Below are positions 1,306 through 62,498 of a stretch of 64,000 bases of DNA, one piece after another. This DNA is from a virus. Within the stretch, counting starts at the first letter, position 1. Each line of letters begins with the position of its first letter. Under the pieces are notes generated by a model. It had not been told where the DNA came from. It saw only the letters and a list, made by a program, of their open reading frames with translations, and ran no database searches. The position numbers and the translations under genes were made by a program. The stretch is taken from positions 7,263 through 71,262 of the IMG/VR virus record IMGVR_UViG_3300025879_001499; one strand, 5' to 3'.

Positions 1306-1473
1306 CTATTTTAGATTCATCATAGATGTAATCTCATCTATCAGCTTTTGTTCGTTTTCTTTACATTCACTTACATATTGTAAATCACCTTCATTAATTG
1401 CAGCCAATTTTTGCTCACCCCACCATTGGAGTTCATTCTGCATTTGTTCTACTTCTGAGTAATTCTTAATCAT
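1306..1473 (-). CDS. Hypothetical helical protein
   Basis: ORF packed between neighbours; likely start MIKNYSE. Confidence 0.5.
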   Translation of the reverse strand: MIKNYSEVEQMQNELQWWGEQKLAAINEGDLQYVSECKENEQKLIDEITSMMNLK

Positions 1474-1873
1474 TACTATATTTTTTTCTAACCCTTTCCG
1501 AAATTGGTATAGGGTCATTGTTTTCATCAATTCTAACGAACTTTATGTTCGTAGATAGTATAACCGATTGTTGGCCAGAATACACATTATGTGCTCTAGC
1601 TTCTAAGTATAAGGTAAGTGAAGTATGACCTATATCAGCAACTCTACCATAAATCTTCAGAAGTTGTCCCTCTTTAGCAGGTTTCTTAAAGATACATTCA
1701 TCAATTTTCACCGTTACCATTCGAGGTGTATCCGCTATTTGAGTTGCCAAAGCGGCTCCAGCAGAATCAATCCATAGCATTAAATTTCCTCCAAATAGAT
1801 TACCATGAAACCCCAAATCACTTTTCTTAACTGGGTGAGTACTAATTAGTTCAAAATCATCTATTACTTCCAT
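1466..1873 (-). CDS. Acyl-CoA thioesterase (HotDog fold)
   Basis: DLGFHGNLFGG..WID, FKKPA..G, GHTSL and FVRID motifs. Confidence 0.85.
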   Translation of the reverse strand: MEVIDDFELISTHPVKKSDLGFHGNLFGGNLMLWIDSAGAALATQIADTPRMVTVKIDECIFKKPAKEGQLLKIYGRVADIGHTSLTLYLEARAHNVYSGQQSVILSTNIKFVRIDENNDPIPISERVRKKYSND

Positions 1874-2544
1874 AACCACTTATATGTTTTTCTATGTTTA
1901 ATTTGGGATATTTGGGCTTGGGATATATCATACTTTTCTGATATGATTCTATACCTAACTCCATCCTTAATCATCTTATCTATTTCCAATACAACCTCAT
2001 CGGAGTGCTTAGCATTGTGTCTAGCTAATTTCTCTTTGGTTGATTCGCTCAATACCTTACCTTTATGAGCTTCGGATATTCTGCGCCTTACATCCTTTCT
2101 AAACTCACTATCTCTATCATATTCCTCTTCATAATATCTTCGAATACCAGCAATCCTAGCTTCAATATCTTCCTTTGTAGGTTTCTTACCTTTTTTTCTA
2201 CCCAACTTAATAGCTTCAATTCGTTCTTTGGAATGTTTAATCCCCTTTAACTTATTACTAATCTTTTTTCTTTGCTCCAATGGTATTGTATACCCTCTTA
2301 ACTCATCAGCTTCCTTACCCAACTTTCCAGCCAACATTCTTGCTGCTGCTAAGTCTTTCATATTACCAGTTTCAATATATTGTTTGGAATGTATTTCATA
2401 GTGTTCATCCAATGATACACACATTAAATTACTTAGTTCGTTGTTCTTACGATTTCCATCTTTGTGATGTATCTCATAGCTTCTACCTTTATCATCTTTA
2501 GGTATATCACCATAGGTAGATTCCCACAGTTTTCTATAATTCAT
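1864..2544 (-). mobile_element. Free-standing HNH homing endonuclease with NUMOD3-like repeats and C-terminal HTH
   Basis: EIHHKDGNRKNNELSNL...EH...H; KHSKE and HKGKVLSESTKEKL repeats; own upstream ATATTTATA motif. Confidence 0.8.
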
Positions 2545-2559
2545 AATAAGTTATTTTAT

Positions 2560-2603
2560 TATAAATATAAGAGTTTACCACCAAACATCAGTTTTCTACC
2601 AAA
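2560..2603 (-). promoter_or_regulatory. Putative late promoter (ATATTTATA) with two tandem TTTGGTRGWAAACT boxes
   Basis: Motif at 2560-2568; boxes at 2572-2585 and 2590-2603 (12/14 identical). Confidence 0.55.
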
Positions 2604-2619
2604 TTATTTTAAGTATTTT

Positions 2620-2856
2620 TCAAGATACATCATCTAAACTTACACCATTCTCCTGCATCAACTCAAAGAGTTTCTCTCTAGCCTCAACATACGCATCATA
2701 CTTATCTGAATTGTATTCTTCATCAGACATATATTTGTACTTCTTTCTCAACCATTGGTCCATCTGCCAACAAACATTCCACCAATCTGATGCTTTGGTT
2801 GCTAGTTTGAACTCTTGGTTATCTTCAGGTAGATTAAAAGTTAAAGTTGCTTTCAT
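2620..2856 (-). CDS. Hypothetical phage protein
   Basis: ORF starting MKATLTFNLPED; ATGA overlap with upstream gene. Confidence 0.65.
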   Translation of the reverse strand: MKATLTFNLPEDNQEFKLATKASDWWNVCWQMDQWLRKKYKYMSDEEYNSDKYDAYVEAREKLFELMQENGVSLDDVS

Positions 2857-3137
2857 TTCTCTTTGGTGTTAAAGGTTTCTAATATATGCAGAGCAAAGTC
2901 TGCCATCATATCATAATGGTAGTGTGCATAGGTTTGTCCTTCACTACGATTAGACTGAACAAAGTCATCAGTCATAGATAGAATCTTGTCGTATGTATCA
3001 GTACCATATTCTGCTAATACTTTATCCCATTCCTCCTTCAGCACCTCTTTAGGTGTTGTTTCAACGATGTATGCCATCTCTTCACCAAAGTTCTTGAAAT
3101 CTGCTTGTGGATTGTAATTTGGATTTACTTCACTCAT
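2853..3137 (-). CDS. Hypothetical protein ending FNTKEK
   Basis: ORF track; ATGA overlaps at both ends. Confidence 0.65.
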   Translation of the reverse strand: MSEVNPNYNPQADFKNFGEEMAYIVETTPKEVLKEEWDKVLAEYGTDTYDKILSMTDDFVQSNRSEGQTYAHYHYDMMADFALHILETFNTKEK

Positions 3138-3304
3138 TTCTCTTTTGTTTTAGTTCTAAACCTAAACGGATAATACGGATAACTAGACATCCATTCTACG
3201 CCATACTTGTCTTTATAGAAGCAAACTTGTGTACCGCTTACAACATCTGTAAAAGAAGTTCTAAGAGTCCTCTTCATCGTGAACATACTGATTAGTCTTT
3301 TCAT
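3134..3304 (-). CDS. Hypothetical 56-aa protein ending KTKEK
   Basis: Hand translation MKRLISMF...RFRTKTKEK; fills the gap exactly. Confidence 0.6.
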   Translation of the reverse strand: MKRLISMFTMKRTLRTSFTDVVSGTQVCFYKDKYGVEWMSSYPYYPFRFRTKTKEK

Positions 3305-3317
3305 TTCTCTTTGGTGT

Positions 3318-3713
3318 TTAACGTTTAACTCTATTTCTTAGACTGAACCAATTTGATATCGATAATGTCATAAATGTATAAGAAAGTATTGTTCCTACTA
3401 TCCATAATCCAGCATATCTATGTTCAATTGATGTATAGATACCCATTACTAATATACATAAACCCAAAAACCAAGCCAATACCCATCCAGTTAATGGGAC
3501 TTTACTTATAACTTTTGATTCTAATTTTTGAACCCTCTCATCATGCACAACTCTACTAAGAGCATCTTGTAAATCCTTACCATATGCTGGTACTACTTCT
3601 GTAGTTCCATCGGTATTTTGGATAGTTATTTCATACTTTAGCCAACCATCGAACTTCTTACTTTCCTTTCTCAGTTCTACATGAATTGCTTTCCTCTTCA
3701 TCTTCATCTTCAT
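3318..3713 (-). CDS. Membrane protein with two C-terminal TM helices
   Basis: Two hydrophobic segments. Confidence 0.65.
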   Translation of the reverse strand: MKMKMKRKAIHVELRKESKKFDGWLKYEITIQNTDGTTEVVPAYGKDLQDALSRVVHDERVQKLESKVISKVPLTGWVLAWFLGLCILVMGIYTSIEHRYAGLWIVGTILSYTFMTLSISNWFSLRNRVKR

Positions 3714-7173: not shown

Positions 7174-7482
7174 TTACTTACCAAATACAATATTCGATAT
7201 AACCTCCTCTACTACATTTCTGTATTTTTCTATTTGTTGTTCCATACTCAATCCAATTAGAGAAATATTACCAATATGAGTATAATCGCCAGTTTCAACA
7301 TTTGAATGTGCTATTGGAAACTGACCTTCTTCTTCCCAATTTGGAGTAGCATATACTACCATATCAGAACTTTCTTTGTACCATTCAATTGTTCCACTTC
7401 GTTCATCCATTGTAGGAGAGTATCCGTATAATGGCTTCATTGATTCAATTTGTTCTGATTGTAAATAAATTTGATTTTTCAT
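7174..7482 (-). CDS. Hypothetical early protein
   Basis: Start MKNQIY after the conserved leader. Confidence 0.6.
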   Translation of the reverse strand: MKNQIYLQSEQIESMKPLYGYSPTMDERSGTIEWYKESSDMVVYATPNWEEEGQFPIAHSNVETGDYTHIGNISLIGLSMEQQIEKYRNVVEEVISNIVFGK

Positions 7483-7570
7483 TTTGTTTGTTTTAAAGGG
7501 TTGACGTTGGTGAGAACTCACTCACTCAATTACAATGTAAACATACGAAAAATAATTGAGACTGCCAAAT
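7483..7570 (-). promoter_or_regulatory. Promoter-GTAATTGAG-hairpin leader cassette
   Basis: Closely similar to 5568-5655; hairpin 7510-7525. Confidence 0.75.
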
Positions 7571-9936: not shown

Positions 9937-9945
9937 TATAAATAT
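9937..9945 (-). promoter_or_regulatory. Putative late promoter ATATTTATA
   Basis: Recurs upstream of genes at 2560, 25341, 36542, 37838, 40255, 48952, 49300 and 61549; ATACTTAT variant at 23578, 57750 and 61522. Confidence 0.6.
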
Positions 9946-12205: not shown

Positions 12206-12255
12206 AGTTACAAATATACGAAAAATATTCCAATTATACAAATACTGACAAATCG

Positions 12256-22057: not shown

Positions 22058-22115
22058 ATTATTTCTTTTATTTCATTTACAATAACCACTTAACTACAAA
22101 TATACGAAATTATTT

Positions 22116-23435: not shown

Positions 23436-23470
23436 TTATAACTTTTTGTTTGTAAATACAAATATACGAA

Positions 23471-23495
23471 AAAAGGTTGGATATACCAACCTTTT
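23471..23495 (-). terminator. Terminator hairpin fused to a promoter
   Basis: AAAAGGTTGG-TATAT-CCAACCTTTT immediately followed by TTCGTATATTTG. Confidence 0.7.
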
Positions 23496-23508
23496 CTTTA
23501 ATTATTTT

Positions 23509-25129: not shown

Positions 25130-25576
25130 CCCTTTAAATAAGATATTCGGTTTAGATACAATTCTCTACACTTATAGGAACACATCTCTTTGGATTCCCC
25201 CCAACGCTTATACGTTTGTAAATGATAATCCGTTTCTACCAATTCCCTTTCCCACTTCGGATGTATCCCCAATGAGGAGGTAAATTCGAATAAGGCTTTG
25301 TTGAGGTTATTTCCCATATTAATATAATTATACTTTCAAATATAAATATAGTGAAATAGAACTATCAAAAAAAAATCAAGGTTTCGACTCACCCCCCACC
25401 ATAAACGATGTAAAGGAGATATCCCCCCTAATCCTCAATAGATGTTATAGTTTGTTTCAATGGGATGTAATCATCAATACCATCATTAAAATCGGTATCA
25501 TAATAATCTCCACGCTCATCTTTATTGGTGGTGGGTTCGTTCCATTCATCATTGAAGAACTTAAAATTCTCTTTCA

Positions 25577-26999: not shown

Positions 27000-27196
27000 G
27001 TTTTATGGTTTTAATTATTATATGTAAATATACGAATAATATTTGATATAACCAAATTAATCTCTTTCTAAGATTTTCTTTAATTGCGATTCTTTTAACA
27101 TTTTGGGTTGTTCGGTGTTTTTACCAACCTCTTCTTCAGTTGGGATGCGATAGTTCTCAACTAATCTCTGCATCCAATCTTTGGTTTCTTTACTCA

Positions 27197-36520: not shown

Positions 36521-36688
36521 AATTTAATTTAATTTACTAATAATAAATATTAATAAGATTAAATAAACATATGGTAATCAGCTTCATCTTCCATTGGCTC
36601 AGATTCTTTATTATTAATCTGAGTTGGTGGATTTGTGTTTGCTAATATCAATGTTGCTAATCCTATTAATAAACTTCGAAAATACTTT

Positions 36689-37161: not shown

Positions 37162-37236
37162 ATCTCTCTATTTTTATATATTAATTAACTTTACAAATAT
37201 ACGAAAAAAATCCGAAAAAACAAAAATATTTTCAAA

Positions 37237-37803: not shown

Positions 37804-37849
37804 TTTTATATACTATTTAGGTTTTTTACTATTTGTATATAAATATAGA

Positions 37850-38953: not shown

Positions 38954-38983
38954 AACTTGAGTTTAATTGATACAAATATACAA

Positions 38984-39009
38984 AAAAAGTTTGGATTTAC
39001 CAAACTTTT
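38984..39009 (-). terminator. Terminator hairpin fused to a promoter
   Basis: AAAAGTTTGG-TAAAT-CCAAACTTTT followed by TTTGTATATTTG. Confidence 0.7.
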
Positions 39010-39038
39010 CTTGCATTTATTTTTAATTTGAGTAGATA

Positions 39039-40250: not shown

Positions 40251-40285
40251 ATTCTATAAATATATATTCAAAACCTTAAAAGTTG

Positions 40286-48929: not shown

Positions 48930-48985
48930 ATCAGTTCAATTTTACCTTTAAGATAAATATAAGGTATTTAGATTTAAAGTAGAAT

Positions 48986-49242: not shown

Positions 49243-49321
49243 AATAAATTTCTTTTTTTGTTTTAGCGTTAGCATAACGTATTGATGAAACTTATTATAC
49301 ATAAATATCAAATTCTTTTCT

Positions 49322-61499: not shown

Positions 61500-61568
61500 T
61501 ATATATACATTTGTGTTTGTATATAAGTATATATAACTTATATTTTTATATAAATATATATAGAATTT

Positions 61569-62438: not shown

Positions 62439-62468
62439 AATCTTTTGTTTGATATACAAATATACGAA

Positions 62469-62493
62469 AAAAGTTTGGGATTACCAAACTTTT
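62469..62493 (-). terminator. Terminator hairpin fused to a promoter
   Basis: AAAAGTTTGG-TAATC-CCAAACTTTT followed by TTCGTATATTTG. Confidence 0.7.
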
Positions 62494-62498
62494 CTCTT

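Follow-up and report, generated by a model that had tools for sequence, protein, structure and literature searches.

Introduction

Homing endonuclease genes (HEGs) that stand free of introns are known from phages, where the seg and mob genes of T4, for example SegF, SegG and MobE, are cases of 'intronless homing', and in organelles the insertion of a HEG with duplication of a gene end is known from Allomyces atp6. C-terminal duplications of atp6 and cob that are flanked by GIY-YIG or LAGLIDADG ORFs are described for fungal mitochondria (PMC6279837). I-TevI, the endonuclease of the phage T4 td intron, is described as binding an operator that resembles its homing site and overlaps its late promoter; putative operators of the same type are mentioned for I-TevII as well as I-TevIII, and the phage genes split by HEGs that are treated there include mobE in Aeh1 nrdA and the split gene 43 (PMC2988022). 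In open-access full text, we found neither a phage HEG that targets a thioesterase (TE) gene nor the replacement of a gene's 5′ end by a phage HEG.

Here we analysed a 64,000-nt stretch of viral DNA (IMG/VR record IMGVR_UViG_3300025879_001499, positions 7,263 to 71,262; hereafter the window), in which an HNH endonuclease gene is preceded by a short sequence resembling a motif of the adjoining TE gene. Comparison with related loci indicates that this sequence (2568-2603), which borders an intragenic HNH cassette on the left, is most likely a decayed scar left by the displacement of the TE gene's original 5′ end.

Results

The HNH gene and the adjoining thioesterase gene

The HNH homing endonuclease gene (1864-2544, minus strand) encodes 226 amino acids, comprising an N-terminal HNH_3 nuclease domain (Pfam E 8.4e-11; 41.8 bits, with a cut-off of 24.8), a helical linker and a C-terminal three-helix domain that may be HTH-like. 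Residues H26, H27, N34, N35 and H52 were invariant among 23 homologues, and the nuclease domain (residues 1-55) showed 65% amino acid identity to I-TevIII-like proteins of T-even phages. Profile matches at the C-terminus stayed below the cut-off (HTH_23 E 0.053, Trp_repressor E 0.033, NUMOD3 E 8.1), with the weak HTH_23 and Trp_repressor matches falling at residues 188-218. The AF2 model was moderate overall (pLDDT 74.9, pTM 0.36) and had a confident three-helix C-terminus (pLDDT 91-94; residues 181-220 above 90). Foldseek of this model against the PDB gave no match at E ≤ 0.001, the top matches being HTH domains and I-HmuI (rank 10), every one with an E value of at least 0.3, and phmmer of the protein against PDB sequences gave 0 matches. 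When the protein was compared by tblastn with 50,697 phage records, 0 records covered at least 80% of it; in those records the nuclease domain alone matched I-TevIII-like genes.

The TE gene (1466-1873, minus strand) is intact, encodes 135 amino acids from its ATG and belongs to the 4HBT hotdog family (Pfam 4HBT E 3.7e-15), with 72% nucleotide identity to gp221 of Flavobacterium phage immuto, a 'hydrolase/thioesterase'. Its ATG (1873-1871) overlaps the 3′ end of the HNH gene, whose stop codon lies at 1866-1864.

Tandem boxes and a promoter-like motif upstream of the HNH gene

Two boxes on the minus strand precede the HNH ATG at 2544. Box A, TTTGGTAGAAAACTGATG (2586-2603), translates as FGRKLM and appears to be a degenerate scar of TE codons 27-32 of the displaced 5′ end; box B, TTTGGTGGTAAACTCTTA (2568-2585), translates as FGGKLL, is probably target-derived and is a candidate operator or left recombination arm. 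They form an 18-nt tandem pair with the common unit TTTGGTrGwAAACT, and TATATTTATAA (2569-2559) adjoins them. The original prediction had the sequences and positions right: the minus strand at 2588-2568 reads ATG TTT GGT GGT AAA CTC TTA, TTTGGTAGAAAAC forms a second box at 2603-2591, offset upstream from the first by exactly 18 nt, and the resident TE gene carries CTA TTT GGA GGA AAT TTA ATG at 1798-1778. The two versions were said to differ mainly at wobble positions, which is true of 6/9 mismatches, at third positions, but not of the 3/9 that fall on a codon's first position, and in two of the codons a different amino acid results (K to N, L to M). The further claim that no other TE remnant flanks the copy holds for the window, where comparison of the TE 5′ end with the upstream 260 nt gave a best local score of 20, from the boxes alone, and no further remnant was recognisable, but it is false for the family. 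Since nothing beyond the boxes can be recognised in the window, their reading as a scar rests on the relatives.

The promoter-like motif of the HNH gene, ATATTTAT (2561-2568, minus strand), is one of 9 gene-strand copies, all of which lie outside called ORFs (roughly 5% of the DNA of the window); in 7 of the 9, a start codon follows 0-45 nt further downstream. We infer that it is the promoter of the HNH gene. Boxes of this kind accompany the HNH copy only, and we discarded the idea that they are a general promoter element, given that the other 8 gene-strand motifs in the window lack them. A host-type promoter was likewise rejected, as in our reading the TTTG elements are not spaced as in a second upstream motif that is frequent in the window (TTTCGTATATTTGTA type), and so was a mini-ORF, MFGGKLLYL, whose ATG is absent from the other cassettes.

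Relatives retain displaced thioesterase 5′ ends

HNH homologues were taken from the best 80 of 449 viral matches and from all 52 metagenome hits, whose contigs may be chimeric, and the TE set consisted of the best 80 of 198 relatives. We examined 30 full-length HNH homologues, comprising that of the window and viral and metagenome hits, at 43-98% amino acid identity. A TE gene or fragment adjoins HNH in 30/30; in 29 of them the TE gene lies directly downstream, its ATG overlapped by the HNH stop, and the 30th has an upstream TE 5′ fragment only. Complete displaced TE 5′ fragments were found upstream of HNH in L100 (=L083), L195 and L202; their local scores were 82-92 (z 29-33), or 96-102 under a second scoring scheme. 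L205 has a diverged TE 5′ remnant and L128/L197 have partly deleted ones. The displaced remnants stop with the FGGK(LL) codons or slightly beyond them, with variable ends, that of L205 reaching codon 35. The comparison thus bears out the expectation that the nuclease is tied to FGGKLL-coding DNA, both through the TE association of every homologue and through the codons at which the remnants end. In L100 and L195, where the displaced TE 5′ fragment is complete, its FGGK motif and box A are one and the same. This physical continuity of the box with complete fragments in related cassettes, and not statistics, is in our judgement the decisive evidence for the origin of the boxes. At the motif the L195 remnant reads TTTGGAGGAAAA, from which GGTGGT would be no strict requirement for cleavage.

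An empty site is seen in L017-L019, where up78 is present and its stop overlaps the TE ATG; in the window this upstream neighbour (2620-2856, minus strand) encodes 78 amino acids and has no family. None of the 80 TE loci (best 80 of 198) has an HNH gene, and at the L011 TE locus the HNH ORF is reduced to its last ~30 nt. The presence of HNH is polymorphic at a fixed TE site among related genomes, and 29 of the 30 homologues are found there. As a separate observation, an exonuclease gene associated with a related HNH lineage has its 5′ end in duplicate, with a displaced MANDIMID start upstream of HNH.

The window and L179 were 63% identical in up78, 73% in the intergenic DNA, 96.6% in HNH and 100% in TE codons 1-32 (1778-1873, minus strand; 0/96 mismatches), a segment that appears to have been imported with the cassette. 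The first mismatch falls in codon 33 (1776), with 87% identity over codons 33-58 and 69% over the rest of the TE gene. We infer that insertion took place between codons 32 and 33 (junction 1778|1777). As these alignments delimit it, the cassette is made up of the ATATTTAT promoter-like motif, the HNH ORF and replacement TE codons 1-32, and it occupies the codon 32/33 junction, immediately behind the FGGKLL codons that belong to the conserved FGG motif. By the same comparison, the original TE 5′ fragment is left upstream, either complete, partly deleted or, as in the window, as two 18-nt boxes. The linkage to TE and the displaced 5′ fragments in relatives mark HNH as a probable intragenic homing cassette. 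The gene had been taken for a mere neighbour of TE, with the copy as an independent, free-standing mimic of its target; instead, HNH seems to be inserted inside TE, for which it supplies codons 1-32, and the copy to be a vestige of the TE gene's own displaced 5′ end.

The resident thioesterase is altered at the putative target

The resident motif region, LFGGNLMLWIDS (codons 26-37; 1763-1798, minus strand), would be the altered homing site. The resident TE departs from the consensus of at least 80% at 6/137 positions, 4 of these within codons 26-37, and its N30 and L33 occur in 0/80 relatives (best 80 of 198). FGGKLLAW is present in 68/80 HNH-less alleles (best 80 of 198) and in 0/26 HNH-linked ones; in the same two sets the core TTTGGTGGTAAR is present in 18/80 versus 0/26, the box core being absent from 62/80 HNH-less alleles. 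A search of HNH-less relatives for TTTGGTGGTAAA, proposed in the original prediction, likewise recovered it in 18 of the 80 (best 80 of 198). Columns 30, 33, 34 and 37 hardly vary in HNH-less alleles but reach an entropy of 1.6-2.0 bits in 24 HNH-linked alleles, although the sequences are not independent, since several loci duplicate one another fully or nearly so and a separate TE clade holds many of the HNH-linked alleles, so that the Fisher tests on these sets are to be read as uncorrected and the column differences as perhaps partly phylogenetic. Residues 16-29 are almost invariant in both allele sets, with just 18, 22 and 24 varying in the HNH-less set. The L100 remnant and its functional copy show 5 synonymous differences over the LFGGK codons (14 nt), compared with 2 over the preceding 42 nt.

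The resident allele had been proposed to be recoded and immune, with its target readable from the boxes. It is indeed altered at the target, but not by synonymous recoding alone: immunity would come mainly from amino acid replacements at residues 30, 33, 34 and 37. For the left half of the target, the boxes do appear to be readable.

Conservation and possible functions of the boxes

Over 19 non-redundant cassettes, mean pairwise identity was 81% for box A and 83% for box B, compared with 35% in the 18 nt before box A and 42% at HNH fourfold-synonymous sites; third and second HNH codon positions gave 54% and 80%, and an independent MAFFT alignment showed the same pattern. The offset of box A from box B is fixed at -18 in 19/19 of these cassettes, and the exact 18-nt period of the two boxes was found in 21/22 non-redundant upstream regions. 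Judged by their excess over the fourfold sites, the boxes are probably still functional. The ATATTTAT motif was 98% identical over the 19 cassettes, and box B starts 15 or 17 nt before it in 21/22 upstream regions, a fixed spacing by which ATATTTAT would take the place of the cut junction (+18) in the target. In the larger clade just 3-4 nt separate the end of ATATTTAT from the ATG, an odd spacing if the motif is a promoter, and the related cassettes L205 and L187 lack both boxes and promoter motif.

That the resemblance is due to chance, or that the boxes belong to a transcribed guide or regulatory RNA, is barely credible. Coincidence would be suggested by the figures for the window: box and resident TE motif share 12/21 identities, a weak match, and the box B 18-mer is up to 17/18 identical to the 80 TE relatives (best 80 of 198), a grade of match to the TE family that is reached at ~9 separate places in the 64 kb, or in roughly 1% of 75-nt regions. 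The sequence TTTGGNGGNAA occurs 4 times in the window versus 0.81 expected, a number attained by 1/100 shuffles. Against both chance and RNA stand the continuity of the box with complete TE 5′ fragments in relatives and the unconserved ATG of the mini-ORF; the guide RNA, which the original prediction had kept as an alternative, is further contradicted by the location of the boxes upstream of the promoter motif and by RNAalifold, which gave 0 conserved pairs over 18 aligned upstream regions (-62 to +26). It is also improbable that the boxes are a functionless neutral vestige, alike through recent common descent or because every homing event renews them from naive genes. Some cassette pairs do have 100% identical upstream DNA (the window and L182, L183 and L184), and in recent insertions box A literally is the recipient's motif, but the fourfold sites are saturated at the level given above and the DNA before box A is lower still, whereas the boxes stay at 81-83%, and refreshment by homing predicts a full 66-nt remnant, which is absent from most cassettes.

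The leading candidate for the present function, compatible with an origin as a scar, is a homing-site mimic serving as autoregulatory operator, which the HNH DNA-binding domain would bind without cutting, thereby occluding the gene's own promoter, as I-TevI does. This reading is tentative and falls somewhat short of probable. It accords with boxes as conserved as HNH second codon positions amid poorly conserved non-coding DNA, with a spacing that puts the promoter motif at the place of the cut junction, and with the I-TevI precedent, the nuclease domain here being I-TevIII-like. The same conservation could equally serve recombination, however, the boxes originate from a gene remnant and not from an independently evolved mimic, and L205 and L187 do without them; deletion of the I-TevI operator, as far as the account in PMC2988022 goes, had no visible effect on phage viability. 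The boxes might instead be kept solely as a left homology arm, or landing pad, which seems rather unlikely. The left end of a cut recipient, ending in the FGGKLL codons, would then anneal to the box, and synthesis would pass through the promoter and HNH rather than the recoded resident copy, making homing independent of the upstream gene. Cassettes follow many unrelated upstream genes and nonetheless retain boxes at the left border, box A plus the spacer corresponds to TE codons 27-32, with its end precisely on the junction, and the fresh full remnants of L100, L195 and L202 would be the recipient's 5′ end retained on arrival. Yet the 6-nt spacer by the junction, where the invading 3′ end would lie, is just 54% conserved, 12-18 nt are short for homologous repair, and one box would suffice where two are found at an exact period.

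Discussion

If the boxes are the scar of the displaced TE 5′ end, as we favour, the cassette may have spread as follows. The HNH enzyme would recognise and cut naive FGGKLL|AW-coding DNA, and repair after the cut would copy the cassette into the naive TE gene, whose imported altered motif (FGGNLMLW in the window) would leave the resident TE gene immune. The boxes, as left target halves, may be under selection because a nuclease bound to them would cover ATATTTAT in an I-TevI-like autorepression, because they would supply a left homology arm with which the cassette could home whatever the upstream gene, or for both reasons. Cleavage, binding and repression are putative activities of the HNH protein. 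A more speculative and somewhat doubtful extension is that the tandem boxes have a dual use, as operator for the cassette's own promoter and as portable left homology arm, and that the 5′-end-replacement design recurs in related HNH lineages targeting other phage enzymes, such as the exonuclease mentioned above; the cleavage sites of nucleases from uncultured phages could then be read directly from scars.

As a computational read-out, the scar would place the nuclease target to within a few codons in never-cultured phages, and it offers a concrete substrate for cleavage assays. A selfish nuclease also appears to drive the diversification of a phage enzyme, in its amino acid residues 30, 33, 34 and 37 beside the FGG motif. 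The locus would be a phage 5′-end counterpart to organellar gene-end replacements, and target-derived boxes by a promoter motif would make it a natural second test case, in an HNH enzyme, for the autorepression model of I-TevI.

Like the I-TevI operator, the boxes are a homing-site-like sequence just upstream of an endonuclease ORF, at its putative promoter (PMC2988022). Unlike that operator, the site here is a target-gene remnant, is repeated in tandem every 18 nt and forms part of a cassette that has no intron. With free-standing phage HEGs (see also PMC2790892) the locus shares an intron-less HEG beside the gene that would be cut, a sporadic distribution, a resident allele whose target is altered, and flanking DNA with a gradient of co-conversion, seen here between the window and L179. 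Those HEGs are intergenic, whereas the present cassette lies inside the target ORF and replaces its first 32 codons, the displaced 5′ end remaining. A free-standing HEG inside the coding region of a conserved phage enzyme also recalls mobE in nrdA and the split gene 43 (PMC2988022); there, two polypeptides reassemble, whereas here one restored ORF stands beside a decaying pseudo-fragment. As with organellar HEGs, the element brings a copy of a gene end and the original end persists nearby as a non-functional fragment (PMC6279837). In the organellar cases, however, the 3′ end of mitochondrial genes and other nuclease families are concerned, and here the 5′ end of a phage gene and an HNH enzyme, where the restored start codon is overlapped by the HNH stop and the target-derived boxes are conserved.

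Organization of the HNH–thioesterase locus

Every gene in the first 6 kb of the window, itself part of a 71-kb virus record, lies on the minus strand. First comes up78 (2620-2856), a 78-aa gene without family match; a spacer of 75 nt (2545-2619) separates it from the HNH gene (1864-2544), whose 226-aa product matches Pfam HNH_3 at E 8.4e-11. A 4HBT thioesterase gene (TE; ATG 1873-1871; Pfam 4HBT, E 3.7e-15) comes next and overlaps the HNH stop (1866-1864). The TE shows 72% nucleotide identity to gp221 ('hydrolase/thioesterase') of Flavobacterium phage immuto, a gene that lacks an adjoining HNH. The minus strand of the spacer carries box A (2603-2586, TTT GGT AGA AAA CTG ATG, preceded by TAA) and, directly after it, box B (2585-2568, TTT GGT GGT AAA CTC TTA), beyond which TATTTATAA and a leader of 15 nt extend to the HNH ATG; the original prediction had placed and spelled the boxes correctly.

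The box copy shares 12/21 identities with the resident TE motif; for TTTGGNGGNAA, 4 occurrences compare with an expectation of 0.81. Among the best 80 of 198 TE relatives, the family consensus is LFGGKLL and not the resident LFGGNLM (68/76 motif matches), and box B reaches a 17/18 match, with exact 15-mers in two loci (L040 and L055). Matches of 17/18 to the TE family are found at ~9 places in 64 kb, therefore at roughly 1% per 75-nt region, and taken alone the match is suggestive but not decisive evidence against chance.

Displaced thioesterase 5′ ends upstream of HNH homologues

We assembled 30 full-length HNH homologues from IMG/VR and metagenome contigs (43-98% aa identity, window included). 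In 29 of them a TE lies directly 3′, its ATG overlapped by the HNH stop; the remaining locus, L187, has a TE 5′ fragment upstream of HNH and no TE downstream. A second complete TE 5′ end, which begins at the ATG and extends as far as FGGK(LL), was found upstream of HNH in L100 (=L083), L195 and L202, with local scores of 82-92 (z 29-33), or 96-102 under another scoring scheme; this copy is diverged in L205 and partly deleted in L128 and L197. The FGGK motif of the displaced fragment is box A itself in L100 and L195, where box B stands exactly 18 nt after box A, abutting the promoter-like motif ATATTTAT. Judged by these relatives, the window's boxes are all that can still be recognised of a displaced TE 5′ end. 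The proposal that they are an independent mimic of the target is not borne out, and neither is their reading as a guide. The exact 18-nt period could stem from joining at the CTT leucine codons flanking the unit. In L180 (786-900), right at the inferred junction, the W34 codon of TE reads as an in-frame TGA (FGGKLLA*); L180 and L187 might represent insertions that are damaged or dead ends, or else errors of assembly.

Limits of the mobile unit

Between the window and L179, a relative locus, identity was 63% in up78, 73% in the spacer, 96.6% in HNH, 100% in TE codons 1-32 (0/96 mismatches), 87% in codons 33-58 and 69% in the rest of TE. Since identity falls first at codon 33 (first mismatch at 1776), HNH moves together with TE codons 1-32 as one unit, whose right border coincides with the point at which the displaced remnants stop. 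The window is also 100% identical to L182 from ~2806 to ~2310, a stretch that starts in up78 and takes in the HNH nuclease domain; past ~2310, identity is 50-80% for the HNH C-terminal part and TE (L182 allele FGGKCLSW). Position ~2310 thus marks a recombination breakpoint inside HNH, between the nuclease module and a presumed DNA-binding module. In an AF2 model of the HNH protein built from a 23-sequence alignment (pLDDT 74.9, pTM 0.36), a beta-beta-alpha region at the N-terminus is followed by helices that pack poorly in the middle and by three confidently modelled helices at the C-terminus. Foldseek returned only weak matches (E at least 0.3), to HTH DNA-binding domains and, at rank 10, to I-HmuI. 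Because of these modelled domains and weak HTH matches, a modular architecture is likely. A 21-nt sequence over the start codons of two adjacent small genes is repeated on the minus strand (2853-2873 and 3301-3321; 0 and 1 mismatch, 0.01 expected), with several further copies in L179 and L183, and may be a recombination-prone gene-boundary repeat.

No HNH was detected within 4 kb of TE at the 80 TE loci examined (best 80 of 198 relatives). In L017-L019 the up78 homologue and TE share a stop/start overlap (TAATG), and there is therefore no room for an intergenic insertion. The closest syntenic relative, L011, has a 316-aa ORF at HNH's place (L011:3016-3994), the final ~30 nt of HNH (..KHRKTYKWLWG*) still in front of TE, and the non-consensus TE motif FGGKCLSW; it is the only one of these 80 loci to retain an HNH 3′ end without HNH. 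The HEG of L011 was thus lost or replaced, whereas the altered TE allele stayed.

Signature of the probable target site in the thioesterase

The resident TE (residues numbered from the ATG) departs from the consensus of at least 80% at 6/137 positions, 4 of them within residues 30-37, and N30 and L33 are present in 0/80 relatives (best 80 of 198). When 24 non-redundant HNH-linked TE proteins were compared with 64 non-redundant HNH-less ones, columns 30, 33, 34 and 37 were near-invariant without HNH (consensus frequency 0.89-0.98) and hypervariable with HNH (entropy 1.6-2.0 bits). In either set there is almost no variation over residues 16-29, and in the HNH-less set it is confined to 18, 22 and 24; columns 43, 114, 127 and 131 also differ between the sets. 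FGGKLLAW occurs in 68/80 HNH-less and 0/26 HNH-linked alleles, and the core TTTGGTGGTAAR, predicted for HNH-less relatives, in 18/80 and 0/26 respectively; Fisher tests on these allele counts are uncorrected for relatedness, with near-duplicate loci counted in. The comparison thus supports FGGKLL-coding DNA as the probable target and immunity of the resident allele, as originally predicted. In L100 the remnant differs from the functional copy by 5 synonymous changes within the LFGGK codons, the 42 nt before them holding 2. Since GGAGGA stands in the L195 remnant, wobble bases cannot explain everything.

Conservation and candidate functions of the boxes

In 19 non-redundant cassettes, mean pairwise identity was 81% for box A (position taken blindly at -18 from box B), 83% for box B and 98% for ATATTTAT. 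The corresponding values were 35% for the 18 nt before box A, 54% for the 6-nt spacer, and 54%, 42% and 80% for HNH third codon positions, fourfold-synonymous sites and second codon positions. An unanchored MAFFT alignment gave the same two conserved blocks. Both boxes are found in 21/22 non-redundant upstream regions having the promoter motif, the exception being L211; L187 and L205 are without the motif altogether. Because the rest of the remnant decays and the boxes do not, we infer that the boxes are under selection.

Their conservation is compatible with two functions that are not mutually exclusive. An operator role, as in I-TevI, would fit the spacing: the target junction lies 18 nt after the box start, and the distance from box B to the start of ATATTTAT is 15-17 nt in the cassette, so that a protein bound to box B would cover the promoter motif. 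The boxes would also fit a left homology arm, which would end exactly at the cut.

Promoter-like motifs in the window

ATATTTAT has 9 gene-strand (minus) copies in the window (2561-2568, 9938-9945, 25342-25349, 36543-36550, 37839-37846, 40256-40263, 48953-48960, 49301-49308 and 61550-61557); none of them falls within a called ORF (ORFs leave ~5% of the DNA free), and in 7 cases a start codon follows within 0-45 nt. The motif resembles a second promoter class; within the window, boxes accompany the HNH copy only. Another frequent upstream motif, of TTTCGTATATTTGTA type (examples at 7483-7560, 12206-12255, 22058-22115, 23436-23500, 27000-27056, 37162-37236, 38954-39038 and 62439-62498), commonly follows a G+C-rich hairpin or a TTTGG..CCAAA palindrome. 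This motif, which we take to resemble the Bacteroidota -7 element, probably represents the phage's host-type (early) promoter class.

Related cassettes and comparison with known systems

Two other HNH lineages have the same design on an exonuclease-like gene (L141:2420-2500 and 3100-3200; L096, L097, L222 and L223): a displaced start, MANDIMID(stop), lies upstream of HNH, and the functional copy (MAADIMIDLETLD.. or ..SNDIMLDIESLD..) begins at the 3′ end of HNH; the upstream/downstream local score in L141 has z 8.3. In L086 (2950-3000 and 3727-), and likewise in L089, an HNH relative lies just upstream of a 456-457-aa ORF, taken from its GNPGGG motif for a putative DnaB-like helicase. Before a ATATTTAT-type motif, these loci have MSVLN* or MVILN*, a possible remnant of the downstream ORF's start (MVLNQ..), too short to be sure.

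We found no publication on a TE-targeting phage HEG cassette in the open-access full-text literature. With free-standing phage HEGs the cassette shares a sporadic distribution, an altered resident target and a co-conversion gradient. It also works like the organellar gene-end replacements described in PMC6279837, in which HEGs flank C-terminal duplicates of atp6 and cob. Four features set it apart: the cassette swaps a 5′ end and sits in a phage, its restored TE start overlaps the HNH stop, and tandem boxes derived from the target are kept at its promoter motif.
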